DNA from: a virus
Reading direction: 5' to 3' (one strand)
DNA: 49,813 nucleotides
Virus record (IMG/VR): IMGVR_UViG_3300037245_003366
Location: 1 to 49,813 of that record
Shown: positions 9,835 through 24,201 of the stretch, in pieces
Position numbering within the stretch: position 1 is the first letter of the stretch
Layout of the letters: every line of letters begins with the position of its first letter
The notes under the pieces: model-generated
Told to the model about the DNA's origin: nothing
The model's database searches: none
What the model saw: the letters and a program-made list of their open reading frames with translations, nothing else
Made by a program: the position numbers and the translations under genes

Positions 9835-9844
9835 AAATAACCCC

Positions 9845-9883: not shown

Positions 9884-9898
9884 TAAAGGAGGAAGGAA

Positions 9899-10270: not shown

Positions 10271-10271
10271 G

Positions 10272-11424: not shown

Positions 11425-11560
11425 GATAAGCAAAAGTCGGTAGTTGATCGTCGTAAGGATGTTGATAGGTATAAGAGTTTACATTGTGAGAGGCATAAGC
11501 AGGATTATTTTGAATATTTGAGGGAGTGTCCTATATGTATAGGAGAAAGGATGGTTTAGG

Positions 11561-11899: not shown

Positions 11900-11935
11900 G
11901 ATGCCCGGTATGTGAGGGCGAAAGGATGGTAGGGG

Positions 11936-12256
11936 GTGGGAGAATATAAAAGTGTTGTGTTAGTAAGTTGGTATAGTTGGGAAATTCCAGATACATTGGA
12001 TAAGTTGATTGAAGCGATACAGAGTATAAAAGCTTCGTTGCCTAAAGAGGTTAGAAATACGAAAGTCGAACTGGATATGGATTTTGATGGATGTGATTCA
12101 AATACGATTTTCAAAATTACTTGTGAAATTCCTATGACTGAAGCTGAGATATTAAAGAATGAGGAGTGGAAAAATCAGAACACTCTTGCGAGAGAAGGTA
12201 GAGAACGTCAGGAATATGAGAGATTGAGGGAGAAGTTTGGGGAGGAGGATAAATGA
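11936..12256 (+). CDS. Hypothetical protein (106 aa), GTG start
   Basis: There is no in-frame ATG near the 5' end. AAAGGA lies 10 nt upstream of the GTG. Confidence 0.5.
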   Translation: MGEYKSVVLVSWYSWEIPDTLDKLIEAIQSIKASLPKEVRNTKVELDMDFDGCDSNTIFKITCEIPMTEAEILKNEEWKNQNTLAREGRERQEYERLREKFGEEDK

Positions 12257-12495
12257 GTAATTACATTGAGAATCCGAACAGTTGTAGGGTTGATTTTTTT
12301 AAACAAGGCGGAAAATGGTATACGACGGAAGCGGTAATTTTTCAAAGTGAAGATTATTCAGGCACTCTAATCCATGATGCTTTTAAGAATGCTTTAAGAG
12401 AGGAAGTACCTAATCAATATTTAGGTATGAGGGCAATTTGTTTAGAACCTTATCATCAACATTGTCATCCAATAAGTTTAATTTGGGAAGGTTAA
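12253..12495 (+). CDS. Hypothetical protein (80 aa)
   Basis: ATGA overlap with the previous gene; GGAGGAGG upstream. Confidence 0.55.
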   Translation: MSNYIENPNSCRVDFFKQGGKWYTTEAVIFQSEDYSGTLIHDAFKNALREEVPNQYLGMRAICLEPYHQHCHPISLIWEG

Positions 12496-12636
12496 CCAGT
12501 TTCCCCAATATGTTGTTTTTTTTTGGCCGGGAAGTCAATTAAACATTAACTTTTTAGGAAAAAAGCGGAGATTAAGATGTAGGATCTCTTTTATCCTGGG
12601 AAGCGTGTTGGGGATTTTTATAAGGGGAGGTATGAA

Positions 12637-12852
12637 ATGAATGGGAGATTAAACGGGAAAGGTCATTTATTGATTGAAAGAGGAGGGAAGTTTAAAGTTC
12701 AAAGTTGTCCCTTTGATTCTGAAGATGATTGCGGCGATTGGTGTCCTTTGTTTGGGGAGCCTGTTAGGAATGCAAGAGGAGCCACGATAGAAACTTGTAA
12801 AAAAGATTTATATTTTAAAACTTTTTCGGATGATAGGAAGGGGGAGAGATGA
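12637..12852 (+). CDS. Small Cys-containing protein (71 aa)
   Basis: ..VQSCPFDSEDDCGDWCPLF..; GGGGAGG upstream. Confidence 0.5.
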   Translation: MNGRLNGKGHLLIERGGKFKVQSCPFDSEDDCGDWCPLFGEPVRNARGATIETCKKDLYFKTFSDDRKGER

Positions 12853-12865
12853 AGGAGGATAAGAT

Positions 12866-13036
12866 ATGATAATAACTACAGAACAAAGAGAAGAATTTGA
12901 AAAAGCCTCAAGACCTTTGATGAAATTTTTAGGTGATACTTTTCATCCGCATGTTAAGGTTATCGTTAATTATGCTTCTTCTGAAATATTAGAAAGTAGT
13001 GGAACGTTTAAAACTGAAGATTATGTAAAAGATTAA
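12866..13036 (+). CDS. Hypothetical protein (56 aa)
   Basis: MIITTEQREEFEKASRPLMKFLGDTFHPHVKVIVNYASSEILESSGTFKTEDYVKD; GAAGGAGG upstream. Confidence 0.45.
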   Translation: MIITTEQREEFEKASRPLMKFLGDTFHPHVKVIVNYASSEILESSGTFKTEDYVKD

Positions 13037-13048
13037 AGGAGGGATAAG

Positions 13049-13840
13049 ATGCAATTAAAAACAGGCCAAGTAGGGGAGATTCAGACATATAACATCGGAA
13101 AGCATGAGATACCATACAGGGATGTAATTCATCCGGATGGGGTAATTCGACTCGAATATTTCCACGAAAAAGGGATGGACAGCGCGGAGGCATATGGGAG
13201 GTTCAGGGCGAGGATGGTTTATTTTCAAAATGAGTATGCGAATTGGGCTACGGTAGGAATGGATAGTATGACGCTGGCAGAGTTGAGCGCGAGGAAGCAG
13301 GAGGAGTTGGTGTTGAATCCGAGTGCAAAGGATGCCCGGCAATGGTTTGCGGGGAGTACGTCAGCGATGGAGGATATGTTTATTGTGAGATTTGGCGGAT
13401 TGCCGATGAATGTTGGATTGATATGTCATGTTGATAAAGATCCTGTGATGATTGCAAATGAATGTGTGAGGAATGCGAATGCGAGAGGGAGATTGGGAAG
13501 TCAGGGAATGATTAATGCAGCTTATCAGGAGCAGTATTTCCTATACACTCAACGTGATCAAGAAGGAAATAGACAATTTGCCATGAAGACGGAGAATGAT
13601 GGAAGGCACCAGGCGACTACGCAGATTGGGGCTCCGCATCCCTGTTATCCAAGTTTTAATAGTATTTGGACAGAGTGGGATAAGGGAGATATACCAAGGA
13701 TGCCGATTCATTGTTTGATTTATGGGGATACAGGGACAGGGAAGAGTACGTTTTTAGCGACGTTTCCGAAACCGATGATTGTTTTTTTATTCGATCCTAA
13801 AGGCAAAGACATTCCATTTTGGCATCATTGGGAGGGTTAA
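13049..13840 (+). CDS. Sak4/AAA_24-like recombination ATPase with rotated (circularly permuted) motif order (263 aa)
   Basis: The Walker-B-like segment WATVGMDSMT, then GGLPMNVGLICHVDKD and the C-terminal-type segment PSFNSIWTEW all come before the Walker A block MPIHCLIYGDTGTGKSTFLATFPKPMIVFLFDPKGKD. That block lies at the very C-terminus. Confidence 0.6.
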   Translation: MQLKTGQVGEIQTYNIGKHEIPYRDVIHPDGVIRLEYFHEKGMDSAEAYGRFRARMVYFQNEYANWATVGMDSMTLAELSARKQEELVLNPSAKDARQWFAGSTSAMEDMFIVRFGGLPMNVGLICHVDKDPVMIANECVRNANARGRLGSQGMINAAYQEQYFLYTQRDQEGNRQFAMKTENDGRHQATTQIGAPHPCYPSFNSIWTEWDKGDIPRMPIHCLIYGDTGTGKSTFLATFPKPMIVFLFDPKGKDIPFWHHWEG

Positions 13841-13841
13841 G

Positions 13842-13985
13842 ATGGAAAAAATAAGAAAGTTAATTTGTTTTATTTTTGGGCATAATTTTATGGCGATTAA
13901 AGCAGATAATAATGACCAATCAGTTTGGGGGTGGTTTTATTGTTCAAGATGTGGCTATGAAGAATTTTTTCAATTTGATAAATAA
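13842..13985 (+). CDS. DUF1660-like zinc-ribbon minigene (47 aa), paralog of 9700..9834
   Basis: MEKIRKLICFIFGHNFMAIK....FYCSRCGYEEFFQFDK; GGGAGGG upstream. The start is 1 nt after the ATPase stop. Confidence 0.5.
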   Translation: MEKIRKLICFIFGHNFMAIKADNNDQSVWGWFYCSRCGYEEFFQFDK

Positions 13986-14092
13986 ATCTGCACAGGCAGG
14001 TAGGGAGGGGGGGTGATATTTGAGAGAGTAAGAAAGGATAGTAAAAGGTTAAAATCAAAGTAGTTAAATAACATTTAAAAAGGAGAAAAAGT

Positions 14093-14866
14093 ATGACAAC
14101 AGACGCGTATTTTCCGTGGGAAGAGACAAAAGAGGATAATATCTTCCCGACAGGTGTGTATCACTTCAAATGTGATAAAATGGAAGATGGGATGAGTTCG
14201 ACTCAGAAAAGGATGTTCAGAGCGCAGTTTACTTGTAAACAGCCGACTGATTATGCCGGGATGAGTTATTTTGATAACTATGTGGTCGGGACAGAGGAGA
14301 ATCCGACGGGTATCGTGCCGGGAAGTATGGGAACGAGGAGTTTTAAGAAGTTTTTAGTGGCTGCTCAGATTCCGCCGAATAATGATGTGAATCAGTTGAT
14401 GACAGCGGCAGCAGGGACGGAATTGTTGCTAGTGATTACGGCGTTTAAGGAGACAAAGGAAGGGCAGTATAAAGGGGATAACAGAAATAAGATCAATGAG
14501 TATTGTAAGGTTGGAGATAAGGAGATAGGGGTTGCACCTGGTCAGGGAGGGGAAAGTGCACCTGGGATGCCTGTGGCGGCGGCTCCTGTACCTGCGCCGG
14601 TTGCGCCACCTGTGGCTCCGACAGCTCCGGCTGGACCAGCGGCTCCTGAAACTCCTGCGGCTCCCGTTGCGCCGGTAGTTCCTGCGCCGGTAGTACCTGC
14701 ACAGCCAGCAACGAGTCCGGCTCCTGTAGCTCCAGCGGCACCTGCCGCACCGGCGGCTCCAGCAGCAGCTCCCGCAACAGCCTTGACACATAGATGTATG
14801 ATTTGTCAGGCTGATGTACCGGCAGCGGAGTTTGCAGCACATGCACAAGGACATGCGAATCAGTAG
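14093..14866 (+). CDS. DUF669-like ssDNA-binding protein with a long Pro/Ala-rich linker and a C-terminal CxxC..HxxxH finger (257 aa)
   Basis: The N-terminal ~140 aa fit the DUF669 pattern (..IFPTGVYHFKCDKME..RMFRAQFT..GTELLLVITAFKE..). An (A/P/V)-rich stretch of about 90 aa follows. The protein ends ..THRCMICQADVPAAEFAAHAQGHANQ. It sits next to the Sak4-like gene, as in known Sak4-SSB modules. Confidence 0.55.
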   Translation: MTTDAYFPWEETKEDNIFPTGVYHFKCDKMEDGMSSTQKRMFRAQFTCKQPTDYAGMSYFDNYVVGTEENPTGIVPGSMGTRSFKKFLVAAQIPPNNDVNQLMTAAAGTELLLVITAFKETKEGQYKGDNRNKINEYCKVGDKEIGVAPGQGGESAPGMPVAAAPVPAPVAPPVAPTAPAGPAAPETPAAPVAPVVPAPVVPAQPATSPAPVAPAAPAAPAAPAAAPATALTHRCMICQADVPAAEFAAHAQGHANQ

Positions 14867-14894
14867 AGGGTAGAGGGAAGTTAATCTAAAACAT

Positions 14895-14920
14895 GCCCCG
14901 GTGAGAGTCCGGGGTTTTTT
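14895..14920 (+). terminator. Intrinsic terminator (CCCCGG-tgagagt-CCGGGG, then T7)
   Basis: Perfect 6-bp GC stem followed by TTTTTTT, 29 nt after the SSB stop. Confidence 0.75.
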
Positions 14921-14939
14921 TAAGAAAGGATAATTAAAA

Positions 14940-15716
14940 ATGATTGAAGAAAGCAACGATCAATTCATACCAGTAGCAAAAATGGACAGTTTGGAAGTGA
15001 TGGCTAATATTGAATATGCAAAAGCGGCAGGTGATCCGGCTTTTTTAGAGTTTCTTCAGCTTCAAGTCAAATGGCAACCGATTGAAGGGAATTTGAAAAA
15101 GTTGGAAGGTGATGAAGATTTGAATAAAGCGGTTGATTTGTTTGATGAGATGAAAACATCAATTAAAAATCTGGATGATTTGAGATTACAGCATGTCGCG
15201 TTTCCTACGAAGGTTGTGAGTATGGTAAATGCGTTGTTTAAGCAAGTTAGGGATGGGATGTTGAAGAGTAAAGATCATGTGGGGAGGTTGATTGATGTGA
15301 GGAAGGGGGAAATTGAAAGAGAGTTTTTGAGGAAGAAAGCAGAAGCGGAAGAGCAGGAGAGGGAAAGGTTGGAGAAGATAAAGAAAGGGGAGAAACAAGA
15401 TGTCGTTACTGAAGAAGTTACGGAAGGTATTGAGAAAGTTCAAATGGAGATTAAGATTCCGGACGCGCCAGAGAATACGGTGGTCAGTACGAGAGGGGCG
15501 AAGGTACATACGAGACAAACGGAGAGTTTGGAAATTATCGATCTGGCGGCGTTTTTGAAGTTGTTAGTAAGTAAGGATAGGAGGAATGGTTGGTTAGTTG
15601 AGAAGAGAGGGGAGTTGGTAAAGATTGATACAGGGTTGTTACAGAAATTGATGAAGGAGAATAAGAAAGCGAAAGTTGGAGGAGTGAAGGTGGTGAAGGA
15701 TACGAAGACTGTTTAA
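14940..15716 (+). CDS. Gp157-like coiled-coil protein (258 aa), tentative
   Basis: Central E/K-rich coiled coil. The C-terminal part (..VVSTRGAKVHTRQTESLEIIDLAAF...GGVKVVKDTKTV) resembles the Sipho_Gp157 C-terminus. The gene lies in the recombination module. Confidence 0.4.
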   Translation: MIEESNDQFIPVAKMDSLEVMANIEYAKAAGDPAFLEFLQLQVKWQPIEGNLKKLEGDEDLNKAVDLFDEMKTSIKNLDDLRLQHVAFPTKVVSMVNALFKQVRDGMLKSKDHVGRLIDVRKGEIEREFLRKKAEAEEQERERLEKIKKGEKQDVVTEEVTEGIEKVQMEIKIPDAPENTVVSTRGAKVHTRQTESLEIIDLAAFLKLLVSKDRRNGWLVEKRGELVKIDTGLLQKLMKENKKAKVGGVKVVKDTKTV

Positions 15717-15741
15717 GGGGATTGGTATATAGGGAGATAGA

Positions 15742-15987
15742 ATGGAAATGCATATAGAGAAAGACTGGATTAAAAAATTTGACCCTAAAAAGGAAGAAAT
15801 TACACCCATTATTGGCCCTATAGAATCAGCCGGAGTGGGTAGAAAATGTCCAAATTGTGGCCTTGTGGCTCATTATAAAATCAAAGGTAGAAAAGTTCAG
15901 AAAGTAGAATGCCCCGAATGTGATTTTGAGTTTGAGGTTAGGAAATATGAGCGAAACAAAAAAAAAGAATGTTTAATAAATAATTGA
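15742..15987 (+). CDS. Zinc-ribbon protein (81 aa)
   Basis: CPNCG...[17]...CPECDFEF; GGGAG upstream. Confidence 0.55.
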   Translation: MEMHIEKDWIKKFDPKKEEITPIIGPIESAGVGRKCPNCGLVAHYKIKGRKVQKVECPECDFEFEVRKYERNKKKECLINN

Positions 15988-16031
15988 TATTATAGATTAC
16001 AATCAGGAGACTGGTACAGAATAATCACACA

Positions 16032-16613
16032 ATGGAGGAACCAATGGAACTTAATTGTGGAACATGCGAAAGCGACAATGCAAAGGCAAACCCATTTTGT
16101 GGAACTTGTATCACATATTCAAACTGGAAACCAAGGGAGGAACCAATGGGAAAGGAGCCAGTTATGAAAGACAGCGCAGGTAATTATAAAATATTGCGGG
16201 ATTGTACGCTTGATACATTGATTGAAGATGGGAATTGTTTTGAAGCGGTTAAGTTTTATAGAAAAGCTTCTTTCCAAACTATTAGTAAGCATTTTAAACT
16301 ATCAGTATTGTTTAAAGAATATCCAGAAATGGTAGAAAAAGCAATCCCTTATCTCACAGATGAAACACTACCAAAAGGCGCATATTTAAAAAAGATAGAG
16401 CGCAAGCCGGAACCGGGGGAGATTTGGAAGCTTGATGGTAATTTATGGTTTGTGGCTGAAAACGAGATTATGAAGTCAACGGCTGTAAAGTCAACAGGAT
16501 GGCTGTGTTATTGTGTTGCAGATAGCGATAAAACCTTTATGAATTTTCAAGCTAATGGTTGGGAATACATCGGCAAGCTAAAGGACATGCTAAAGAAAAC
16601 AGAAGCGGAATAG
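16032..16613 (+). CDS. Hypothetical protein with an N-terminal CxxC..CxxC knuckle (193 aa)
   Basis: ..CGTCESDNAKANPFCGTC.. The start may be ATG 16044 (GGAGGA upstream). The 14-mer GGAGGAACCAATGG recurs internally at 16135..16148. Confidence 0.55.
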   Translation: MEEPMELNCGTCESDNAKANPFCGTCITYSNWKPREEPMGKEPVMKDSAGNYKILRDCTLDTLIEDGNCFEAVKFYRKASFQTISKHFKLSVLFKEYPEMVEKAIPYLTDETLPKGAYLKKIERKPEPGEIWKLDGNLWFVAENEIMKSTAVKSTGWLCYCVADSDKTFMNFQANGWEYIGKLKDMLKKTEAE

Positions 16614-16622
16614 GGGGGAGGT

Positions 16623-16871
16623 ATGAACAAAGATGTCGAAGAATTTCAAAATACCCTCTGGGGAATTGAAGAAAAAGTAACGGAATATTACGGAGAGAAG
16701 AAATGGGATACGCCGAGGAGTATTACGTTTGGTGATAAGGGTACGAAGGAGAATGATATTTGCATCGGGAAAAAGTTATTTTTAGATGGAAGCGTGACGA
16801 TGAAGAAGATAAGTAACGGGTGGGAAGTTAAGATGCCGAGGTGGTTGGCGAGAAAGGAGGGGTTGGTGTGA
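16623..16871 (+). CDS. Hypothetical protein (82 aa)
   Basis: ORF with GGGGGGAGG upstream. Confidence 0.55.
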   Translation: MNKDVEEFQNTLWGIEEKVTEYYGEKKWDTPRSITFGDKGTKENDICIGKKLFLDGSVTMKKISNGWEVKMPRWLARKEGLV

Positions 16872-16956
16872 TATACTTATTTACAATAGATACGGCAGGG
16901 GGCAGTCTTTATTTTTATGATTGGTACTGCACGATAGCATAGGAGGGACTTATATA

Positions 16957-17250
16957 ATGAAATTAAACAAAAAACAATTTCAATTCTCCTGGATGGTTGG
17001 GCAGCTGATTATTTTCTATTATCAAAATGGATATACGATTCAGCTTGGGGATGCGAGAGCGAAGACAGGACATAAGAAGGGGAGCTTTCACGGGTTGAGT
17101 TTGGCGATTGATATTAATTTGTTTAAGGATGGGAAGTATTTGAAGGATACGAAGGATCATTTGCTTGGGGGGGAGTTTTGGATGTCGATAGGAGGAAGTT
17201 GGGGAGGTTTGTGGGATGACGGGAATCATTATAGCTTGGGGGAGGGATAG
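16957..17250 (+). CDS. Peptidase M15 (VanY / L-Ala-D-Glu peptidase-like) cell-wall hydrolase, probable endolysin (97 aa)
   Basis: Zn-ligand motifs SFHGLSLAIDINL and WDDGNHY. ATG 16957 is in frame within track ORF 16921..17250. Confidence 0.7.
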   Translation: MKLNKKQFQFSWMVGQLIIFYYQNGYTIQLGDARAKTGHKKGSFHGLSLAIDINLFKDGKYLKDTKDHLLGGEFWMSIGGSWGGLWDDGNHYSLGEG

Positions 17251-17253
17251 GAA

Positions 17254-17445
17254 ATGAGTTTATATGATTACGAAAAAAGCAGAGATATTAATCTTAAAGA
17301 TTACAGTTTTACAGCTTTAATTATGGCAGCTATGAGAAAAGCTGATGATTTTAATTTAGCTATGTTAAAAGCGGAATTTCCGGATATACTTAATGAATTA
17401 AAAGCACGTTATAATGCTCCAGGTGGAAAATTAGAGGGGGAATAA
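17254..17445 (+). CDS. Hypothetical protein (63 aa)
   Basis: ORF with GGGGGAGGG upstream. Confidence 0.5.
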   Translation: MSLYDYEKSRDINLKDYSFTALIMAAMRKADDFNLAMLKAEFPDILNELKARYNAPGGKLEGE

Positions 17446-17448
17446 AAA

Positions 17449-17619
17449 ATGAAAATAAAAATGTGGTGTTTGGTTAATAGGAAGACGGGTAAGATTGTGA
17501 ATGTTTAGGTAGAAGGTACTTCGTATGCAGTTGGGTTCGGTTCAAAAAAAGGATTGTTAGGTGTAATTGGTGAACCTGATCACGACGAAGAAATCCGGAA
17601 AATTGAGGTGGAGGTGTGA
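17449..17619 (+). pseudogene. Small ORF (56 codons) interrupted by one in-frame TAG at codon 20 (nonsense mutation or read-through candidate)
   Basis: MKIKMWCLVNRKTGKIVNV-TAG(17506..17508)-VEGTSYAVGFGSKKGLLGVIGEPDHDEEIRKIEVEV-TGA. Both parts share one frame. The downstream part has no ATG or GTG start, only a late TTG at 17554. Confidence 0.4.
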
Positions 17620-17622
17620 TGG

Positions 17623-18174
17623 ATGAAAAAATATAATATAATTTATGCTGATCCACCGTGGAGCTATAAAGATAAAAGAGATAAACATCCACGTATTTGT
17701 GGTGGTGCTTTATCACATTATCAAACAATGAATTTAGAAGATATTAAAAAACTAAATCTCCCAACAGATAATAATTGTATGCTATTTTTGTGGGCTACGT
17801 TTCCTAACATGCAAGAAGCATTAGATGTCATAAAAGCATGGGGTTTTACATATAAAACACTTGGTTTCAGTTGGATAAAAACAAATAAAAAGAACGGTAA
17901 ACCATTTTTCGGGATTGGGTATTATACAAAATCTAACTGCGAAGTTTGTTTGATAGGTGTTAAAGGCAAGCCAATAAAGATAAGTAATTATGTTAGTAGT
18001 GTGATAATAGCTCCGAAAGAAACACACAGCAAGAAACCAGATTGTGTCCGTGATAAGATTGTTGAATTGTGTGGTGATATACCAAGGTTAGAAATGTTTG
18101 CGCGTCAAAAAACGGAAGGATGGGATGTGTGGGGGAATGAAGTTAATTTTATTGAAGTAAAAGAGATTAAATAA
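17623..18174 (+). CDS. MT-A70 family N6-adenine DNA methyltransferase (183 aa)
   Basis: Catalytic DPPW motif (NIIYADPPWSYKD), ..MLFLWAT.., ..THSKKPD.., ..RLEMFAR....GWDVWGNE. Confidence 0.85.
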   Translation: MKKYNIIYADPPWSYKDKRDKHPRICGGALSHYQTMNLEDIKKLNLPTDNNCMLFLWATFPNMQEALDVIKAWGFTYKTLGFSWIKTNKKNGKPFFGIGYYTKSNCEVCLIGVKGKPIKISNYVSSVIIAPKETHSKKPDCVRDKIVELCGDIPRLEMFARQKTEGWDVWGNEVNFIEVKEIK

Positions 18175-20063
18175 TGACCTACCAAAAACAACACGTCCCT
18201 TCAGAGGGACCACTGGATGCAAAAGTCATCCTCATAGGAGAGAATCCCTGGGTGAATGAAGTGTCGAATGGGAGGCCATTTGCAGGACAAGCAGGGAATA
18301 AGTTAAAATTCTGGTGGCATGGGACCGGGTTGGATAGGACAAAGATGAGATTGATGAATTTATATCCTTACAAACCTCCGATAGATGATTTAGTATGTGT
18401 GGAAGTGGATGAATTGGGAGAGTGGGTTGGGAAGTTACATGAGAGGATTGGGAGGTTAGAGGAGCCGCATGTGCTTGTGCCGATGGGAAACTATGCTACA
18501 TGGGCGTTGACAGGAAAGGGAAAGGTCAAGGCGGCGTTAAGGAATAAATTCACGCAGGTGGATGATGTAGGAGCGACTGAGGCTGAGAAAAAGGCGGGAA
18601 TTGTTGATTTGCGCGGAAGTTTTTATCCTTATAAGGATGTGAATGGGAGAATTTTAAAAGTTATTCCAATGATTCATCCTAAAGAGGCGTTAAAATGGGA
18701 TAAATGGGATAAGAGATGTAAGAATGATTGGGATAAGGTGGATAGGGAGAAGGAGTTTGGAGAAATAAGGGCGTTGGATAGAAAGCATGTTATTGACCCG
18801 AGTGAGGAGGAGGTTAGGCAGTTTACTGAGACTGTGGAGTATTGGGGGGAAGATGTCATATTATCGATTGATATTGAGAGTTGGGGAAACCAGCTTACAT
18901 GCGTGGGATTTTCACATCGAAAGGATTGGAGTATTACGATTCCGACGTTCGGGAAGAAAGCAGATGTGTTCCTTCCTTATGTTAAGAGGTTGTGTGAGAG
19001 TGCGAGTGAGAAGGTGTTGTGTAATGGATTGTATGATTGGTATTGGTTGGATTATTATAATATACAACTTAGGAATTTCCGATGGGATGTGAGTTTGATG
19101 CATCATGCATTAGATGCGGCGGAGAGTCATAGTTTGAATTTCCTGGCGAGTATTTATTGTCCACATTATGTTTTTTGGAAGGATGAAGCGAAGGAAGCGG
19201 AAGAGATTATTAAATATGCGAAGAAATTGGATGCTCTTTGGGTGTATAATGGATTGGATTGTGTTTATACGAGGGAGTTGTATGATTTGTTGAAGGCGGA
19301 TTTGGAAAGAGAAGGGATGTTGAATTTTTATCTCCAACATTATGCGGGGATGTTGGAGCCGTTATTAAGGACGACACGGCATGGATTTAGGGTGGATAAA
19401 GAAGCTCAGAAGACATGGGCTAAGAAGTTGAAGGGTGAGATGAAGGGGATACATGCGGAATTGAATAAAGAAGCGGGAGAAGAGCTGTTTGCTACTGAGG
19501 AGAAGGGGTATTTGAGGGAGCCAACATTAGAAGAGTGGAAAAGGTTATTCAATTGGTCACAACCACAAAAAGACGCATTAGATATGCAATGGATGAAAGA
19601 TTTCTACTCTCAACCACCAAAAAGTAAAGAAATTGATCGTGAAGTTCGTAAGGAACTTGGATATATAATGTCCGGGAAGAATGCCGGGAAGATCCGGGAT
19701 AAAAAGACAATAGTGAAGAAAGATTTCTCCAATGCAAAGTTGATGGAGTTTTTCTATGAGACGTTGGAGTTGCCAAAGCAGTATAAGTTGAGAAATGGGA
19801 AGAGTGGGAGGAAAAGGACGGTATGTTTGGATGAGGGGGCGATTAGGAAGTTGACGGCAAAATGGCCTAATAAGATAGAAAATTGGGGGAATTTGTTATT
19901 AGCACATAGGGAGAAGAAGAAAGAAGCGGATTATTTAAAGGGGGCATGGGATAAGGATGGGAGGATCAGGTGCGGGTATGGGATGTTGACTGAGGCAGGG
20001 AGGTTGAAGAGTCATAAGAATCCTATGAGGAGAGGGTTTAATTTGCAGAATATTAAGAGGTGA
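18174..20063 (+). CDS. polA: Family A DNA polymerase, N-terminal fragment: UDG-like domain, 3'-5' exonuclease, and start of the polymerase domain (629 aa)
   Basis: UDG-fold motifs GENPWVNEVSNGRPFAGQAGNKL and MIHPKEAL. Exonuclease motifs SIDIESWG, NGLYDWYWL and YNGLDCVYTRELY. The ORF ends ..GRLKSHKNPMRRGFNLQNIKR-TGA, at the conserved NLQNIP box. Its start overlaps the methyltransferase stop. Confidence 0.85.
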   Translation: MTYQKQHVPSEGPLDAKVILIGENPWVNEVSNGRPFAGQAGNKLKFWWHGTGLDRTKMRLMNLYPYKPPIDDLVCVEVDELGEWVGKLHERIGRLEEPHVLVPMGNYATWALTGKGKVKAALRNKFTQVDDVGATEAEKKAGIVDLRGSFYPYKDVNGRILKVIPMIHPKEALKWDKWDKRCKNDWDKVDREKEFGEIRALDRKHVIDPSEEEVRQFTETVEYWGEDVILSIDIESWGNQLTCVGFSHRKDWSITIPTFGKKADVFLPYVKRLCESASEKVLCNGLYDWYWLDYYNIQLRNFRWDVSLMHHALDAAESHSLNFLASIYCPHYVFWKDEAKEAEEIIKYAKKLDALWVYNGLDCVYTRELYDLLKADLEREGMLNFYLQHYAGMLEPLLRTTRHGFRVDKEAQKTWAKKLKGEMKGIHAELNKEAGEELFATEEKGYLREPTLEEWKRLFNWSQPQKDALDMQWMKDFYSQPPKSKEIDREVRKELGYIMSGKNAGKIRDKKTIVKKDFSNAKLMEFFYETLELPKQYKLRNGKSGRKRTVCLDEGAIRKLTAKWPNKIENWGNLLLAHREKKKEADYLKGAWDKDGRIRCGYGMLTEAGRLKSHKNPMRRGFNLQNIKR

Positions 20064-20068
20064 TATTT

Positions 20069-20266
20069 ATGGGTACAATTACCGTACATACAACAGATGA
20101 AGCATTTATTTTAAGGGGGGTTAGAAAGATTATTAGGAAGGATGCAAGGTATAAAGGACTACTTTTTTCTTTAGTAGATATACACCAAAGTACAGAAAAC
20201 TATATAAAATATTTAAAGAAAACAAACAAAAGCTTAAAAAAACAAACTAAGGATCTTACAAGGTGA
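20069..20266 (+). CDS. Hypothetical basic protein (65 aa) inside the polA gap
   Basis: MGTITVHTTDEAFILRGVRKIIRKDARYKG...; AAGAGG is 8 nt upstream of ATG 20069. Confidence 0.45.
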   Translation: MGTITVHTTDEAFILRGVRKIIRKDARYKGLLFSLVDIHQSTENYIKYLKKTNKSLKKQTKDLTR

Positions 20267-20454
20267 TGGGGATGGACGATAAAGAAATCATAACCTTCAA
20301 CTGGTGTCCTGATTGTGGAATTGATATGGATAAGGAAGGGGTAGAGAGAGAGAAGTGCATCCATTGTGGGGAAGGGTATTGTGTGAGGTGTGTTAAGGAA
20401 CATGAGAGTATGTGTGTAGAGAATGCGAGGAATGATTGGACGAGGGGGTATTGA
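20266..20454 (+). CDS. Zinc-ribbon protein (62 aa) inside the polA gap
   Basis: ..WCPDCGIDMDKEGVEREKCIHCGEGYCVRCVKEHESMC..; TGATG overlap with the previous ORF. Confidence 0.5.
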   Translation: MGMDDKEIITFNWCPDCGIDMDKEGVEREKCIHCGEGYCVRCVKEHESMCVENARNDWTRGY

Positions 20455-20457
20455 AGG

Positions 20458-20598
20458 ATGTTTGATAAATGGATAGGATGGTTGATTGAAGCTTCCTTGG
20501 ATGAAGATAAGTGGTTAATATCAGTTGATAGTGTTTATATTCGTTCAAGGTTATGGTGGTCTGTTTATTGGAGAAAAAAGACGAGGAGTGATTATTGA
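20458..20598 (+). CDS. Hypothetical Trp-rich protein (46 aa) inside the polA gap
   Basis: MFDKWIGWLIEASLDEDKWLISVDSVYIRSRLWWSVYWRKKTRSDY; GAAGGATG context. Confidence 0.35.
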   Translation: MFDKWIGWLIEASLDEDKWLISVDSVYIRSRLWWSVYWRKKTRSDY

Positions 20599-20948
20599 TG
20601 AAAATATTAAGAGTATTAGAATATGAGGGAACCGAAGAGTTTATTTCAAGTTGTTTAAAGAATAGAGCTATACGTAATAGATATGAAGTTGGAAACGGAA
20701 TTATACGTGAAGCAATTCTTGGTGGTACTGATGAAGTTTTAAGTCAAATGGAGAATGAAAAAAGTATTATACCCTTAGATGAAAAAGTATTTTTTAGGTT
20801 TTTAAATGGAGAAAGACTTGTTAAAATTGCTAAAGATTTAGATGTATCTTTACCTGCTATAAGAAAAAGAGTATTGCGTTATTGTGGGAGAAAGGGGCTT
20901 AATTATGATAGAATTAAAATCAATTCGCGAAACCTTCCTCCCCGATGA
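20598..20948 (+). CDS. HTH protein (116 aa) inside the polA gap; its N-terminal half is paralogous to 22388..22609
   Basis: MKILRVLEYEGTEEFISSCLKNRAIRNRYEVGNGIIREAILG.. The C-terminal part ..GERLVKIAKDLDVSLPAIRKRVLRY.. looks like a sigma-r4/LuxR-type HTH. AGGAG upstream. Confidence 0.55.
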   Translation: MKILRVLEYEGTEEFISSCLKNRAIRNRYEVGNGIIREAILGGTDEVLSQMENEKSIIPLDEKVFFRFLNGERLVKIAKDLDVSLPAIRKRVLRYCGRKGLNYDRIKINSRNLPPR

Positions 20949-21753
20949 AGGCTGCGTTATGGTACGCTGTGACCTTGCACAAGTAGAGCATAGGATAGGT
21001 TTAATGTATTGTGGGACGGAAAGGTTGATACCTTTAGCGAATGTCCGGCCTGAGACATATGATGCTTTCACGGAAGGAGCGAAAGCGATTTTCGGGGTTG
21101 TGAAGGTTGAAAAGCAAATGAGATATCTGACGAAAAAGGTATTTCATGCGAGTTGGCGACAAATGGGCGGGGAGAAGATGAGTGAGAGTATTTCGAAGGA
21201 TACCGATGGAGGGTTGTTTGTTCCTGCCAGGAAATGTCAGACTTTGATAAATAAGCATTTACAGAATTTTCATGAGATTGAGGAAATTTTCTTTCCTTGG
21301 GTGAGGGAGAGGGTTAGAAATGATGGGGTGTTAGTGAATTCCTGGGGGAGAAGGATGGATTTGAAGCATTGGAGGATAGATGATGATCTTTATAGGAAAG
21401 CATATTCTTTTTATATGCAATCAGATGCGGCAGATTGGACTAATCAGTATGGATTTGTACCGGGGCATTGGTGGATGATGGAGAGGTATGGGAGGCCGTT
21501 GAATGCACAGGTTCATGATGAGGTGATTGCGAGTGTGCCTTTTGAGGATGCTTGGGAGTTTGCAGATTTTATTGTGAAAAGTATGGAGCAGAGAAGGGAA
21601 ATTCCAAAAGGAAGTGGGAATTATTTGACGGTTCCGGCAGGGATTACCGTGGGAAGAAGTTGGGGGGATCAGAAAGGAGTGGAGTTTAAGAGGTTAGAGG
21701 AGAGGGAGGAGTTTTATTTGAAATTATATAAGGAGGGGTTTTATGGATCTTAA
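20905..21753 (+). CDS. polA: Family A DNA polymerase, C-terminal fragment (palm and fingers, motifs A-C; 282 aa)
   Basis: MIELKSIRETFLPDEGCVMVRCDLAQVEHRI (motif A, cf. DYSQIELR), RYLTKKVFHASWRQMG (divergent motif B) and NAQVHDEVIASVP (motif C). ATG 20905 has AAGGGG upstream. An alternative GTG lies at 20884. Confidence 0.85.
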   Translation: MIELKSIRETFLPDEGCVMVRCDLAQVEHRIGLMYCGTERLIPLANVRPETYDAFTEGAKAIFGVVKVEKQMRYLTKKVFHASWRQMGGEKMSESISKDTDGGLFVPARKCQTLINKHLQNFHEIEEIFFPWVRERVRNDGVLVNSWGRRMDLKHWRIDDDLYRKAYSFYMQSDAADWTNQYGFVPGHWWMMERYGRPLNAQVHDEVIASVPFEDAWEFADFIVKSMEQRREIPKGSGNYLTVPAGITVGRSWGDQKGVEFKRLEEREEFYLKLYKEGFYGS

Positions 21754-21967
21754 TAGCAGGTGTACAGGACGAACAACAAAAATGTTAATTGAATTAGCTT
21801 CTTATATTCATGAAAACTGGAATACATATAAAATTATTAGTTTCAGTTCTCATAGTTTAGTGTATTCTTTTAAGCTTATAGAAAGAATCCTTCCTGTTTT
21901 ACCTGGATATAAAAGAATAAATAAATACCATTTTGAATTCGGTAAAGTTCATTTATTTATTTATTAA
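21743..21967 (+). CDS. Hypothetical protein (74 aa)
   Basis: ..CTGRTTKMLIELASYI..; AAGGAGG upstream. Confidence 0.45.
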   Translation: MDLNSRCTGRTTKMLIELASYIHENWNTYKIISFSSHSLVYSFKLIERILPVLPGYKRINKYHFEFGKVHLFIY

Positions 21968-22053
21968 AACAAGAGAAGATCAATGTCTCGGATCACCGAG
22001 AAAAAAACTTCTTGATATGGATTTTGACGATCATTATATAAGGGAGATTTTAA

Positions 22054-22383
22054 ATGGTGGCGATATTGGATAAAAAAGAAACAAACAAACAGGCACAGGA
22101 TATTTTGAAGAATTTCACTCCGGATGAGAAGGCATTTGCGGAGGCATTCGCAACAATGAAGATTGAAAATAAGATGCTGACAAGGCAGCTTGTAACTTTA
22201 AAAGAAGCGTATGAAGAAATATGGCAATTGGCGGTGGTTGTGTTGGATATTGTGCAGAAGGATGACCCGGAAGGATTAAGGTTGCATGTGAGTCAGTTGA
22301 AGAGGTTTAAGGAAGAGTATAGGATAGATAGGAAAGTGGATGGGGAGGATGTTGTTTTTAAATTACTGACTGTGGGGGATTAG
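22054..22383 (+). CDS. Hypothetical protein (109 aa)
   Basis: ORF with AAGGGAG upstream. Confidence 0.55.
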   Translation: MVAILDKKETNKQAQDILKNFTPDEKAFAEAFATMKIENKMLTRQLVTLKEAYEEIWQLAVVVLDIVQKDDPEGLRLHVSQLKRFKEEYRIDRKVDGEDVVFKLLTVGD

Positions 22384-22387
22384 GGAC

Positions 22388-22609
22388 ATGAAAATATTAA
22401 GAGTATTAGAATATGAGGGAACAGCAGAATTTATTGCAAATAGCCTTAAAAATCGGAGTGTGAAAGTTAGGTATGAAATACCTGATGGTGTAATACGGGA
22501 AGCAATTCTTGGAACTTTTGAGGATCTTTTTTTACAATTTACAAAAGAAAATTGTGATGTTTGTAATTATCCACATTCAATGTGTATTTGTGAAGGAGGT
22601 GGGATATGA
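22388..22609 (+). CDS. Paralog of the N-terminal half of 20598..20948, with a C-terminal Cys cluster instead of an HTH (73 aa)
   Basis: MKILRVLEYEGTAEFIANSLKNRSVKVRYEIPDGVIREAILG... then CDVCNYPHSMCICEGG. The first 35 nt are identical to 20598..20632. Confidence 0.55.
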   Translation: MKILRVLEYEGTAEFIANSLKNRSVKVRYEIPDGVIREAILGTFEDLFLQFTKENCDVCNYPHSMCICEGGGI

Positions 22610-22983
22610 AAGTATTAAAAGCTGCACAAGTTTTAAGGGATTTTTATGATAAGAATAGGGCTGTTGGACATACTCAATTACTCCAACAAGGTATTGAAAA
22701 AGGTATTGAAGATAAAGAGTTTTTAGTTTTAGGTGCTCATGAGCACCAAGCAAGAATGCTTTGTAAAAGTAATAAGGAGCGAGCAATTCCTGTTTCAATT
22801 GAAAACTTGGGTATGAAATTGAAAGCAAAGAAGCTCCCTCTTGCCATTGATAATTCTTTTATGCATCAGTTTACCAGAGAGGTTGCTAAAGAACTTGAAG
22901 AATATAAAGAATTAAAACGCGAAGTGGTAGAACTGATTAAAGTATTTCAACCTAAGTTTAAGGAGTTCGACAATGAGGATTAA
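22606..22983 (+). CDS. Hypothetical protein (125 aa)
   Basis: ORF with GGAGGTGGG upstream; ATGA overlap. Confidence 0.55.
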   Translation: MKVLKAAQVLRDFYDKNRAVGHTQLLQQGIEKGIEDKEFLVLGAHEHQARMLCKSNKERAIPVSIENLGMKLKAKKLPLAIDNSFMHQFTREVAKELEEYKELKREVVELIKVFQPKFKEFDNED

Positions 22984-22986
22984 AAA

Positions 22987-24201
22987 ATGCCAAAAATCAT
23001 CTACCCCGCTCTTCAACATACCACTGACTTCTTCGAACTCTATCAATACATCTGCGGAATTAGTGAGATTCCTTCCGAATATCACTTCTGGTCATCACTT
23101 AGCATAGTCGCTGCATTAGCGGAAGATCATATCTGGTTTGAAAAATTCAAAGGAGAAAAGTTATACCCTAATCTTTATATGATATTAGTTGGGCCGAGTG
23201 GGTTAGGTAAGGGGGGAGCAATTAGCCAGGCTATCCGAGTGGCAGATAGCGCGGTGTATGTTAATCGGTATAGAGGGAAGCTGACGTATGCTCATTTAAT
23301 AGATAAACTCGGGAAGGCCAGTAAGGATGAATGGGGGAGGTTGGTTATAGCGAATCCGAGATTGTTTCTGGTTGCAGATGAATTGAGGAATTCGGTTGGT
23401 ACGAATCAGCAGTTGGTTACGGAGTTGATTGCCTTGTTGACTGAGTTATATACAGCGAGTGGATATACTTTACAAACAGGAACCAGGACGCATGGAAGTA
23501 TTGATATTACAAATCCTGTGGTTAATTGTTTGTTTGGGAGTACGGAGGACTGGTTGAGGTTTGTTATTACAAAGGATATTGCTCAGTCAGGATTCACGGC
23601 AAGAACTTGTTTTGTGTTCGGGAAATATGATTTTGAAAAGAAATGTCCGAGGATTATTTATCCGGATGATTATGAGGAAGTGTATGAGCATATTAAATGG
23701 CGACTCTGGATGATGCAGAATATCCGGGGGAGATGCGTGATGACGAGTAAGGCGGAGGCATTGGAAGATGAGTGGTATATTACAAGGCCAAATCCGAGTG
23801 AGGAGGCGTTGTATTCTACATGGAAAAGAAATCATGATTTGATGTTGAAATTTGCTATGTTGATGTCGTTGGCTGATAAAGGGGATTTGGTAATATGTCA
23901 TAGGCATTTAAAGAATGCTAAAGATATGGTGGATGTGGTTAACGGGCATACGATGAAGTTGATTGAGATGGCAAATGAGACGTGGGAGACGAAGCCGAGT
24001 AATGATATTATAGATTATATAAAAGAGAAGGGGAAGGTTAAGCACTCGGATGCGCTAAGATATTTCAGAACAAAAAAGGGAATGAACGCGAGCAGGTTTA
24101 AGGCTGCGGTATGGGATTTGAAACAGGAAGGGTTGGTGGAATTTGGGAAGAGTAAGACAGGTGGTGTGGTTTATACTTTAGCTATGAGGGGGAGGTTTTA
24201 A
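22987..24201 (+). CDS. DUF3987-like P-loop ATPase (putative replicative helicase or loader) with a C-terminal winged helix (404 aa)
   Basis: Walker A LVGPSGLGKGG, Walker B LFLVADEL, ..VNCLFGST..; the C-terminal ..AVWDLKQEGLVEFGKSKTGGVVYTL looks wHTH-like. Confidence 0.5.
   Translation: MPKIIYPALQHTTDFFELYQYICGISEIPSEYHFWSSLSIVAALAEDHIWFEKFKGEKLYPNLYMILVGPSGLGKGGAISQAIRVADSAVYVNRYRGKLTYAHLIDKLGKASKDEWGRLVIANPRLFLVADELRNSVGTNQQLVTELIALLTELYTASGYTLQTGTRTHGSIDITNPVVNCLFGSTEDWLRFVITKDIAQSGFTARTCFVFGKYDFEKKCPRIIYPDDYEEVYEHIKWRLWMMQNIRGRCVMTSKAEALEDEWYITRPNPSEEALYSTWKRNHDLMLKFAMLMSLADKGDLVICHRHLKNAKDMVDVVNGHTMKLIEMANETWETKPSNDIIDYIKEKGKVKHSDALRYFRTKKGMNASRFKAAVWDLKQEGLVEFGKSKTGGVVYTLAMRGRF

Follow-up and report, generated by a model that had tools for sequence, protein, structure and literature searches.

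The free-standing HNH gene mobE divides nrdA, a ribonucleotide reductase gene of Aeromonas phage Aeh1 (Friedrich et al., 2007; Crona et al., 2010), and gp43, which encodes a family B polymerase, is split in some T4-like phages (Petrov et al., 2006), as recounted in PMC2677866 and PMC3045599. Among family A DNA polymerases (PolA) of phages, group I introns with HNH endonucleases interrupt the gene at E. coli codon 674, as represented by I-HmuI (SPO1), I-HmuII (SP82), I-BasI (Bastille), and I-PfoP3I (Pf-WMP3); the group I intron in the PolA gene of phiL7 is located at codon 676 (PMC3428280, PMC11878797). T7-like cyanophages of the S-SBP1 and S-TIP37 type (clade B) carry an exonuclease/polymerase split that was reported as the first PolA gene split (PMC10201439, PMC12695635). 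PolA is distributed over three ORFs with an HNH gene between them in Aeromonas phage MQM1 (PMC10410586), and a small ORF lies between the PolA halves of the OM43 phages MEP401 and MEP402 (PMC10580990). For fractured genes, the model in Dassa et al. (2009) predicts that the endonuclease is lost later and that the halves drift apart (PMC2677866).

The window analyzed here, the entire 49,813-nucleotide stretch of the viral record IMGVR_UViG_3300037245_003366, encodes its family A DNA polymerase as two separate ORFs in different frames of the plus strand (18174-20063 and 20905-21753); the ORF list agrees with the initial annotation, which had the N-terminal fragment ending with TGA at 20063 and the C-terminal fragment restarting in another frame at 20905. 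All features discussed below are on this strand. The upstream gene, polA-N (629 aa), comprises a UDG-like domain, a 3'-5' exonuclease, the thumb, and the TGR and NLQN motifs, and ends with GFNLQNIKR and TGA; it covers positions 478-985 of PHROG_17 and also matches the profiles TIGR00758 and PRK05755. Its UDG-like (family 4) domain (18198-18722, aa 9-183; Pfam PF03167, E = 6.7e-16) contains the UDG motif-like segments GENPW (18237-18251) and IHPKEA (18672-18689); the match of this domain to TIGR00758 (E = 1.1e-16) falls under the curated cut-off of that model. The exonuclease domain (DNA_pol_A_exo1, PF01612; aa 263-377, E = 5.2e-8) has its motifs within 18864-19271, namely Exo I (SIDIES, 18864-18881), Exo II (NGLYDWYW, 19023-19046), and Exo III (YNGLDCVYT, 19245-19271), with columns that are invariant or nearly so among relatives.

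The downstream gene, polA-C (282 aa), starts with ATG behind its own Shine-Dalgarno sequence, AGAAAGGGG, and resumes the polymerase with IRETFLPDEG; the other candidate start, GTG at 20884, is without a Shine-Dalgarno sequence. It matches positions 139-380 of the 381 in DNA_pol_A (PF00476; E = 8.9e-21) and positions 995-1253 of PHROG_17, and aligns with Klentaq residues 301-512. Motif A (CDLAQVEHR, 20968-20994), motif B (RYLTKKVFHASWR, 21121-21159), and motif C (QVHDEV, 21508-21525) are present, so that a complete set of exonuclease and polymerase catalytic motifs is kept across both halves. In the alignment of motif B to Klentaq, H and R occupy the positions of E. coli F762 and Y766, as first noted from the sequence; in this polymerase family the H is found in 49 of 49 sequences, and the Y766 position holds R in 39 and Y in 10. 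The UDG-like::exo::pol architecture proposed at the outset is borne out by the Pfam and other profile matches, and its description as known but uncommon in phages fits the N4-like, SPO1-like, and SP15-like polymerases that share it (PMC10201439; bioRxiv 10.1101/2025.03.26.645540).

The break point, NLQNIKR and TGA at 20040-20063, corresponds approximately to codons 675-681 of E. coli Pol I and is situated within the polymerase domain, with the NLQN box on one side and motif A on the other. The reading frame of polA-N closes again 16 codons past the TGA, not 19 as initially counted. The initial annotation had further stated that nothing conserved is lost here and that such a site is typical of those targeted by mobile elements. 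Both statements hold: in PHROG_17 coordinates polA-N stops at 985 and polA-C begins at 995 with no conserved residue missing; unsplit relatives, the intact state with which comparison had been suggested, continue NLQNVKR/GDxRKTF uninterrupted through the site (slash at the break); and the same stretch receives PolA introns at codons 674 and 676 (PMC3428280) as well as HNH genes in the gaps of relatives. AlphaFold models place the break in a surface coil that leads from the NLQN motif to the beta-strand bearing the motif A aspartate. The AlphaFold2 model of an unsplit relative (P0026; pLDDT 93.6), with Klenow, Klentaq, and Pol theta as its best structural matches (target-normalised TM-scores 0.65-0.81), has the break site in coil 604-618; the window halves, modeled as an artificial fusion and not as a heterodimer prediction (pLDDT 91.3, pTM 0.89), have junction 629/630 in coil 627-635, where local confidence is lowest (74-80). 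Since the break sits in a loop, the two halves are presumably able to assemble into a single Klenow-like fold without covalent linkage.

The gap between the polymerase genes (20064-20904, 841 bp; G+C approximately 0.30-0.37, compared to 0.40-0.45 in the polymerase genes) is filled entirely by four small, closely spaced ORFs, all of which follow a Shine-Dalgarno-like sequence; consistent with the first reading of the sequence, searches of Pfam, PHROGs, and NCBIfam returned no HNH, LAGLIDADG, or GIY-YIG match in any of them. Gap ORF 1 (20060-20266; 68 aa from GTG 20060, with a likelier start at ATG 20070 after GAGGTGA) and gap ORF 3 (20458-20598; 46 aa) have no significant family match in these three databases and no homologue in related loci. 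Gap ORF 2 (20263-20454; 63 aa) is cysteine-rich and zinc ribbon-like (CPDCG...CIHCG...CVRC...C), with weak IBR and zinc-finger matches that are all under curated cut-offs; it has no homologue in related loci, and small zinc-ribbon ORFs are frequent in the gaps of relatives. Gap ORF 4 (20595-20948; 117 aa, likely start ATG 20598) overlaps the start of polA-C by 44 nt and combines an N-terminal 55-aa "ILRVLEYxGT" domain with a C-terminal helix-turn-helix similar to resolvase, HTH_7, and HTH_23-type repeats; it has approximately 45 small remote relatives that are without a Pfam family. A paralogue of its N-terminal domain is encoded downstream by a 73-aa ORF (P0122; 22388-22609), the first 66 nt of which are 85% identical to 20598-20663. 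No terminator-like site was found on the plus strand of the gap, and the four genes are probably co-transcribed with both polymerase halves.

The split is shared by 62 distinct relatives, independent proteins from JGI, ENA, NCBI, and Logan assemblies with 41-59% identity, which have their stop codon at the same position, following N[LM]QN[ILV]KR as TGA, TAA, or TAG; by this comparison, the split is far beyond chance or error. The halves are approximately 56% (N) and 61% (C) identical to those of one such locus (L001), with every catalytic motif retained. Each C fragment has its own start codon, frequently overlapping the stop of the preceding ORF, and an N-terminal extension of approximately 1-13 residues ahead of [IL]R[EQS]TFLPD that differs among relatives. 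Gap lengths lie between 185 bp and 8.7 kb, the largest gap having approximately 29 genes, and gap content is unrelated between loci; none of the four window gap genes has a homologue in the gap of any relative. HNH homing-endonuclease genes occur in six of 19 distinct gaps by our own tally over the gaps examined. PHROG_5200-type HNH genes (E = 1e-44 to 1e-49) are found in three gaps (L001, L054, and L056), an HNH_3 gene in that of L061, and an HNH gene in that of L093, whereas the closest relative, L137, has two HNH_3 genes, one adjoining each polymerase half. The gap is a variable cargo slot, and the split is clade-wide and apparently recurrent.

The best explanation, to which we assign a probability of roughly 0.7, is a non-spliced family A polymerase in pieces that probably originated from free-standing homing endonucleases, and whose halves, a UDG-exonuclease-thumb polypeptide and a palm-fingers polypeptide carrying motifs A, B, and C, presumably reassemble non-covalently; the initial annotation had committed itself to no mechanism. 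Most likely, a free-standing HNH homing-endonuclease gene would have inserted at the conserved target and supplied a stop codon and a translation restart; the split would then have been inherited, and apparently re-created or spread more than once, while the space between the halves would have become a slot for gene turnover. In the window, the endonuclease would have been lost and the four small genes left behind. Since this gap contains neither an endonuclease nor a detectable remnant, we infer the homing origin from the relatives only; non-covalent assembly, enzymatic activity, and co-transcription are likewise inferred. The split codon is most likely the scar of selfish nuclease genes.

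The alternative that survives best, although it is doubtful, is a functional split of single, non-homing origin, with HNH genes as later arrivals in a permissive intergenic spot. The absence of endonucleases from the window gap and from 13 of the 19 distinct gaps speaks for it, and the three HNH types (PHROG_5200, HNH_3, and HNH) suggest repeated arrival instead of one founder. The phylogeny can be read in its favor as well, since the backbone of the bootstrapped neighbor-joining trees, calculated from the N-terminal part only, is weak (approximately 50% support for the main split clade); one old split followed by re-fusions or recombination may account for the distribution. Yet the split sequences form a single clade in 0 of 100 replicates, and three groups have the break at the same codon, with strong support for unsplit sisters in two of them: split P0080/90/93/94 with unsplit P0006, and split P0109 with unsplit P0010 and P0026 (200/200 replicates each). 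P0109/L093, where the break is shifted by one codon (KKG and stop), has an HNH gene. Moreover, the PHROG_5200-type HNH is confined to the polymerase gap across 1.28 Mb of related DNA, HNH genes directly adjoin polymerase halves in L137, L001, and L054, and the same PolA stretch is a documented HNH target in other phages (PMC3428280).

An improbable reading is that of a dead polymerase pseudogene broken by insertion, in a phage dependent on the polymerase of its host or on another one; a stop codon within a catalytic domain has the look of gene inactivation, and some phage lineages lack DNA polymerase altogether (PMC12695635). However, the halves persist without further stops in at least 62 lineages that have diverged to 41-59% identity, all catalytic residues of exonuclease and polymerase are retained, ribosome-binding sites and start codons are still present in the C fragments, and a scan of the 20 larger ORFs in the window found no other DNA polymerase.

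Slightly less probable still is a self-splicing group I (or group II) intron of 841 bp that restores a single mRNA, as in SPO1, Bastille, and Pf-WMP3. The site is suggestive, given that published phage PolA introns at E. coli codons 674 and 676 lie just 5-7 codons upstream of the break (PMC3428280), and so is the size, with phage PolA introns averaging 802 +/- 342 nt (PMC11878797). PolA introns start with a stop codon and cause ORF callers to report two genes, as in the SP8 annotation, and the loop length of unsplit relatives fits splicing of KR onto (K)S-IRETF. The covariance-model scan that the initial annotation had proposed nevertheless found no Intron_gpI or group II match at E<=10 (Rfam, 19800-21200), whereas the SP8 intron, a positive control of the same search mode and length, was detected (RF00028, 27.1 bits, E = 1.6e-4); the gathering threshold alone would miss this control, and a very divergent ribozyme could escape the models. 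Five relatives gave no intron match in E-value mode. The gap RNA folds no better than shuffled sequence (z = +1.27), and the four ORFs leave no space for a non-coding ribozyme core; since the gaps of relatives share no sequence, they have no common RNA. The individual start codons and variable N-terminal extensions of the C fragments also speak against splicing at the RNA level.

Protein trans-splicing of a split intein, which would make this a "fractured gene" as Dassa et al. (2009) use the term, is very unlikely, and the sequence itself already contradicts it. Environmental phage-like DNA does contain fractured genes whose halves flank a free-standing endonuclease (PMC2677866), and ordinary inteins are found in this polymerase family at motif A (L019, L138), at motif B (P0071), in the exonuclease (P0111), and in the UDG domain (P0110). 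But polA-N ends at KR, residues aligned with unsplit relatives, without an N-intein of approximately 100 aa; the C fragment begins 1-13 residues before IRETF without a C-intein of approximately 35 aa; the +1 position has no conserved Cys, Ser, or Thr; and neither half has an intein match in Pfam, which answers the caution in the initial annotation about trans-splicing elements. An assembly or sequencing artefact (frameshift or chimeric join), a general possibility in metagenomic contigs and nothing more, is hardly conceivable, because the stop is conserved in the 62 independent relatives, and also in view of the 841 bp of coherent ORFs that separate the halves and the closure of the contig by an exact 127-nt terminal repeat; the frameshift errors considered at the outset thus do not account for the split.

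The preferred reading, a polymerase in pieces of homing-endonuclease origin, resembles Aeh1 nrdA and T4-like gp43 in that two separately translated genes encode an essential replication enzyme, with the cut in a conserved catalytic region, without intron or intein, and with a homing-endonuclease gene between the halves, here in relatives. In nrdA and gp43, the published fragments reassemble into active enzyme, whereas the present case is known from sequence and models. It differs further in concerning a family A polymerase, in the replacement of the endonuclease in the window by genes that are absent from the gaps of relatives, and in a split that is common to a large, diverse metagenomic clade with at least three lineages and a gap of up to 8.7 kb. 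With the PolA group I introns it shares the NLQNIP box stretch, HNH endonucleases, and a similar insert size, and the SPO1-type polymerases are also UDG-PolA fusions; in contrast to these introns, no ribozyme was detected here while the control was, the break is displaced downstream by approximately 5-7 codons, the second half carries a translation start of its own, and the inserts of relatives share no RNA or sequence. The fractured genes of environmental phage-like DNA (PMC2677866) have the same order of N-part, endonuclease, and C-part, but the fragment ends here carry no intein halves. As in the cyanophages, where the two products are considered to make up a two-subunit enzyme, two genes encode a family A phage polymerase; the cyanophage split, however, coincides with the exonuclease/polymerase domain boundary, while here it falls within the polymerase domain, between the NLQN motif and motif A, and comes with intervening genes and an HNH association. 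The PolA genes of MQM1, MEP401, MEP402, and Caulobacter phage Kuura, the last of these identified in the present analysis and broken between Exo II and Exo III, have similar interruptions, which consist of an HNH gene or of one or two small ORFs, without demonstration of splicing, at break points that differ from that of the window or go unreported; beyond the single-genome reports on MQM1 and the MEP phages, the present analysis addresses clade-wide conservation, recurrence at one codon, and turnover of the gap content.

The family A DNA polymerase of this phage is encoded in two separate open reading frames on the plus strand that differ in frame and together retain all catalytic residues of the exonuclease and the polymerase. 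The upstream gene, polA-N (18174-20063; 629 aa, ending in GRLKSHKNPMRRGFNLQNIKR and TGA), begins with a UDG-like domain of family 4 (Pfam UDG, aa 9-183, E 6.7e-16; TIGR00758, E 1.1e-16, below the model's full-length cut-off) and is matched over aa 3-325 by the SPO1-like Bacillus phage polymerases. A 3'-5' exonuclease domain (PF01612) with the Exo I, II and III motifs (DIE, NGLYDWYW, YNGLDC) follows; these motifs are kept in relatives, and the corresponding activity is predicted. The downstream gene, polA-C (20905-21753; 282 aa), carries motif A (CDLAQVEHR), motif B (RYLTKKVFHASWR) and motif C (QVHDEV), corresponds to the C-terminal two thirds of Pfam DNA_pol_A (PF00476, positions 139-380 of 381, E 8.9e-21), and aligns by phmmer with Klentaq residues 301-512, including the D, E and HDE residues. 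Taken together, the Pfam matches, the Klentaq alignment and AlphaFold models characterize the protein as a predicted Klenow-like family A polymerase; a second polymerase was not found among the 20 larger ORFs of the window that were scanned. The break lies at aa 629, past the thumb and the NLQN motif, within the polymerase domain. On the PHROG_17 polymerase profile polA-N stops at position 985 and polA-C begins at 995, so that no conserved part is missing. The initial annotation had described this two-ORF layout, the break between the NLQN box and motif A with nothing conserved lost, the motifs, the N-terminal UDG fold and a four-ORF insert; these observations were correct, and the profile alignment recommended there gave a clean breakpoint.

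The window starts and ends with an exact 127-nt direct repeat (1-127 and 49687-49813), and therefore represents a complete phage genome of ~49.7 kb that is terminally redundant or circularly assembled. Genes for the large terminase subunit, the portal protein and an internal virion protein are located on the minus strand; the plus-strand replication block contains a PD-(D/E)XK nuclease, an AAA_24 protein, an MT-A70 methyltransferase, the polymerase genes and a DUF3987 primase/helicase-like protein. The MT-A70-type DNA methyltransferase gene (17623-18174; DPPW motif, Pfam E 1.3e-28) shares its last base, 18174, with the start of polA-N. The coding strand of the replication block (~8000-24200) contains 10.8% C vs. 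28.7% G, with a GC skew of +0.37 to +0.61, and G and C are equal (21% each) on the coding strand of the minus-strand structural block (24400-48600); this skew is regional, lacks strand symmetry, and is stronger than that of relatives (0.03-0.35).

A search of 5.8 billion proteins with the joined polA-N and polA-C as a single query yielded 120 relatives. Sixty-two of these (600-660 aa, 41-59% identical to the window protein) stop at the break point of the window, nearly all with the ending N[LM]QN[ILV]KR and a stop codon, and a few with one residue changed or one added; they come from JGI, ENA, NCBI and Logan assemblies, many of them on contigs of ~50 kb. The split is clade-wide and not an error, and the frameshift artifact that the initial annotation had considered is contradicted by the same break in 62 relatives from separate assemblies. 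The intact state, for which a comparison with related polA genes had been suggested, exists in 49 unsplit relatives of 810-895 aa, the nearest of which run uninterrupted across the site as NLQNVKR|GD(V/M)RKTF. Wherever enough 3' DNA is present, the C-terminal half is found downstream on the same strand, with its own start codon (ATG, GTG or TTG) that in many cases overlaps the stop codon of the ORF before it, and with an N-terminal extension of ~1-13 residues ahead of [IL]R[EQS]TFLPD that differs among relatives. These starts and variable extensions point to independent, probably coupled translation, unlike a conserved splice junction.

Bootstrapped neighbour-joining trees (546 aligned columns, N-terminal part only) did not recover the split sequences as a single clade in any of 100 replicates. 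Four split sequences (P0080, P0090, P0093, P0094) grouped with the unsplit P0006 in 200 of 200 replicates, and the split P0109 grouped with the unsplit P0010 and P0026 (200/200; with P0010 alone, 86/100); the main split clade, which includes the window, was supported by ~50%. P0109 stops one codon later, with KKG and a stop, and its locus has an HNH gene in the gap between the polymerase halves. The simplest reading of these sequences would be at least three insertions at essentially one codon. Alternatively, one old split could have been followed by several re-fusions, or by recombination between lineages; this possibility draws on the fact that the distance trees cover one half of the protein and leave the backbone joining the split groups unresolved, and has against it that a single origin was never recovered as one clade. 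Under either reading – repeated insertion, or an old split with later re-fusion or recombination – the codon at the break is one that was hit repeatedly.

Since this stretch of PolA is a classic intron target, and the introns found there are similar in size to the gap, the intron hypothesis deserved a real test. As described in PMC3428280, HNH-carrying group I introns interrupt PolA at E. coli codon 674 (SPO1, SP82, Bastille, Pf-WMP3) or 676 (phiL7); the introns of Bastille-like phages average ~800 nt (PMC11878797). At the Rfam gathering threshold no match was obtained in the whole window or in seven related loci. This threshold also missed the intron of the positive control, Bacillus phage SP8, whose polymerase locus is annotated as carrying one (L136; 5800-6670): the intron scores 27.1 bits, and the gathering score is 50; gathering-mode negatives for phage introns should not be trusted alone, and E-value mode was relied on instead. 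In E-value mode, the SP8 intron was recovered from 1401 nt as RF00028 (27.1 bits, E 1.6e-4); at the same length no RF00028 was detected in the window at E<=10, and none appeared in 69 kb from five relatives. The insert RNA of the window folds no better than shuffled sequence (z = +1.27), and the gap is filled by four ORFs that would leave a non-coding ribozyme core no room. With the covariance-model scan that the initial annotation had proposed thus negative and its control positive, an intron in the window gap is rejected.

A split intein is excluded as well, since the fragments end flush with the unsplit relatives and show neither N- or C-intein segments nor a +1 nucleophile; Pfam found no intein domain in either polymerase half. 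Stop-codon recoding or readthrough is not the explanation, since the fetched relatives use TGA, TAA or TAG at the break, and the polA-N frame closes again 16 codons on (the closure itself had been noted before, with a count of 19 codons that did not hold).

In a confident AlphaFold2 model of P0026, an unsplit relative (pLDDT 93.6, pTM 0.90), a coil (604-618) ends at the site, R617|G618, and is followed by a short helix and then the strand of motif A (630-637); TM-scores against Klenow, Klentaq and Pol theta, normalised to the target, range from 0.65 to 0.81. The artificially joined halves of the window are likewise modeled as Klenow-like (pLDDT 91.3, pTM 0.89), with the junction 629|630 in a nine-residue coil that has the lowest local confidence (74-80). 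No terminator-like site was found on the plus strand between the polymerase halves. From the confident joined model, the retained catalytic residues, and the lack of a terminator, or of another polymerase among the 20 ORFs scanned, we infer that polA-N, the four small genes and polA-C would be co-transcribed, that the two polypeptides (~73 and ~33 kDa) would associate via the large interface left by the palm cut, and that this two-chain complex would act as the replicative polymerase of the phage. The break represents a naturally tolerated split point in the palm of a Klenow-like polymerase, and a candidate site for split-enzyme designs.

The window gap (20064-20904, 841 bp) contains four closely spaced small ORFs (20060..20266, 20263..20454, 20458..20598 and 20595..20948), each preceded by a Shine-Dalgarno-like sequence. 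As noted in the initial annotation, none of them shows a recognizable homing-endonuclease motif: no nuclease family matched in Pfam, PHROGs or NCBIfam, tblastn searches of the gap with the HNH proteins of relatives gave only noise instead of an HNH remnant, and no homing-endonuclease gene separates the halves in the window. The four ORFs had no homolog in the gaps of relatives and no significant match in ~140 related loci; a word-indexed search of 5.8 billion proteins returned ORF 4 itself only, and an exhaustive search added only remote small relatives of the ORF 4 N-terminal domain and generic helix-turn-helix repeats. No relatives were found in these searches for ORFs 1 and 3, and the small, Cys-rich, zinc-ribbon-like ORF 2 has weak family matches below curated cut-offs. 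ORF 4 combines a 55-aa N-terminal domain (20595-20760; consensus ILRVLEYTGT..F....R.VKG....G.IREA.LGD) with a C-terminal resolvase-type helix-turn-helix; the N-terminal domain belongs to a family of small proteins (P0126-P0178; 53-160 aa, ~45 representatives at 50% identity clustering) that has no Pfam family. A paralog of this domain, a 73-aa ORF (22388-22609), is located 1.8 kb downstream. The 5' ends of both paralogs form a 66-nt direct repeat (20598-20663 and 22388-22453, 85% identical) that encloses the remainder of ORF 4, polA-C and two more ORFs; since the nucleotide identity exceeds that predicted from the protein identity, recent gene conversion between the copies is suggested. The closest relative of the window (L137) has HNH_3 proteins with a DNA-binding tail, from which the helix-turn-helix of ORF 4 might have been left over; this idea was dropped, as BLASTP matches were not significant (E 0.61 and 5.2).

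The gaps of related loci vary widely in length: ~185 bp in L133, ~187 bp in L134, ~220 bp in L138, 332 bp in L059, 347 bp in L004, 463 bp in L053, 498 bp in L066, 734 bp in L093, 941 bp in L063, 944 bp in L057, 963 bp in L056, 1276 bp in L061, 1326 bp in L003, 1340 bp in L054, ~1.6 kb in L137, 2.7 kb in L001, 4.9 kb in L005, and 8.7 kb with ~29 genes in L131 and L132. In L131 (protein P0101; gap at 11860-20545) and likewise in L132, the gap includes genes for a PAPS reductase and a DUF7167 protein. Gap contents are mostly unrelated from locus to locus; they include a ParB-like protein, YspA/SLOG proteins, PAPS reductase and many small zinc-ribbon ORFs. HNH genes occur in 6 of the 19 distinct gaps tallied over the loci examined: a PHROG_5200-type HNH in L001, L054 and L056 (E 1e-44 to 1e-49), located directly behind polA-N in L001 (at 7876-8607) and L054; an HNH_3 gene in L061; an HNH gene in L093; and two HNH_3 genes in L137 (7387-7905 and 8497-9012), one adjoining each polymerase half. 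Across 1.28 Mb of related DNA, the PHROG_5200-type HNH is confined to the polymerase gap.

The split probably arose when a free-standing HNH gene cleaved an unsplit allele in the conserved stretch that encodes NLQNxKR|G and was copied in at repair, bringing a stop codon and a restart; later, the endonuclease would be lost and the halves would drift apart. The HNH mechanism has been documented in phage Aeh1 (mobE in nrdA) and suggested for T4-like gp43 (PMC2677866, PMC3045599). The model of Dassa et al. (PMC2677866) predicts that the endonuclease is subsequently lost and that the halves separate, which fits the window, without an endonuclease, and L131, with its widely separated halves. A speculative extension, which we consider rather unlikely, would treat the halves of this essential gene as fixed homology arms around a landing pad, where HNH cuts at NLQNxKR|G, in alleles that have no split or hold other cargo, would promote recombination among phages infecting the same cell, repeatedly recreating the split and swapping its contents; the gap would serve as a locus of 0.19-8.7 kb for the exchange of accessory genes, and could not be lost because it lies inside an indispensable gene.

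The wider polymerase family is heavily parasitised. Between NLQN and motif A, more distant relatives are interrupted independently and at different codons: in L015 (7872-8978; identical to L129) past RELRNIYVAG, with an insert of ~1 kb; in L122 (P0120) past YVPDLFDY at ~1295; and in L118 a short interruption of 96 nt (1526-1623). A candidate dCTP-deaminase-like reading frame was seen by eye in the L015/L129 insert. Inteins, several with HNH domains, occupy four sites: motif A (L019, ~990-1750; L138, 8126-9850), motif B (P0071, 634-941), the UDG domain (P0110, 59-320) and the exonuclease domain (P0111, 300-562); L138 combines the split with an intein within its C-terminal half. In the cultured Caulobacter phage Kuura (L135, OQ067476.1; 2977-6381) the UDG-PolA is cut between Exo II and Exo III, into Kuura_029 (UDG, Exo I-II; "hypothetical protein"), two small ORFs, and Kuura_026 ("DNA polymerase", from Exo III onwards); the annotation of this genome does not show the split. 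One codon broken recurrently, three further break sites nearby, the exonuclease-domain break of the distant phage Kuura, inteins at four sites, and a gap turned cargo slot would make the family an illustration of the lasting changes that selfish nucleases can impose on an essential gene.

Motif B (window 21121-21159; P0026 residues 686-698) is atypical for family A, with H at B3, equivalent to E. coli F762, and R at the position of Y766. The histidine is present in all 49 family sequences, and also in Kuura; at the Y766-equivalent position, 39 of these 49 have Arg and the other 10 Tyr. Cluster descriptions within the 2023 PolA reclassification name only Phe, Tyr and Leu at B3, and the N4-like polymerases described there have Phe, in contrast to the His of the window family (PMC10201439). 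The window polymerase shares only 23-30% identity with every GenBank phage polymerase. His at B3 may affect nucleotide selectivity, and the family with this invariant residue possibly constitutes a distinct, so far unclassified UDG-PolA subfamily of altered selectivity. The N-terminal halves (P0001, P0008, P0028 and others) are named "uracil-DNA glycosylase family 4" or assigned to a Candidatus Omnitrophota MAG in databases, and the polymerase is therefore mis-annotated; under this label, or as "hypothetical protein", the clade would be missed or truncated in polymerase phylogenies and marker surveys.

Among known systems, the window compares most directly with the nrdA/mobE genes-in-pieces: a conserved gene is cut into two separately translated ORFs without loss of a residue and, judging from the negative intron and intein tests, without splicing; active assembly of the fragments is predicted. 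An endonuclease gene between the halves, as in nrdA/mobE, is absent in the window, yet present in six of the 19 gaps including that of the closest relative. The covariance-model-detectable core of group I introns (RF00028) has no counterpart in the window. The order of a family-4 UDG fold N-terminal to exonuclease and polymerase is shared with the N4-like, SPO1-like and SP15-like UDG-PolA fusions, as far as these are described in PMC10201439 and bioRxiv 10.1101/2025.03.26.645540. In the split PolA of T7-like cyanophages, as portrayed in PMC10201439 and PMC12695635, the break falls at the boundary of exonuclease and polymerase, whereas the PolA of the window is broken inside the polymerase domain. 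Single-genome reports describe PolA genes with an HNH gene or a small ORF between the pieces (PMC10410586, PMC10580990), and genes-in-pieces that arise via homing endonucleases are an established concept; the interpretation given in the initial annotation is supported overall. New in the window case are a palm-internal break just downstream of the classic intron site, its fixation in a large uncultured clade, its recurrence at one codon, and a gap that has become a variable cargo slot.
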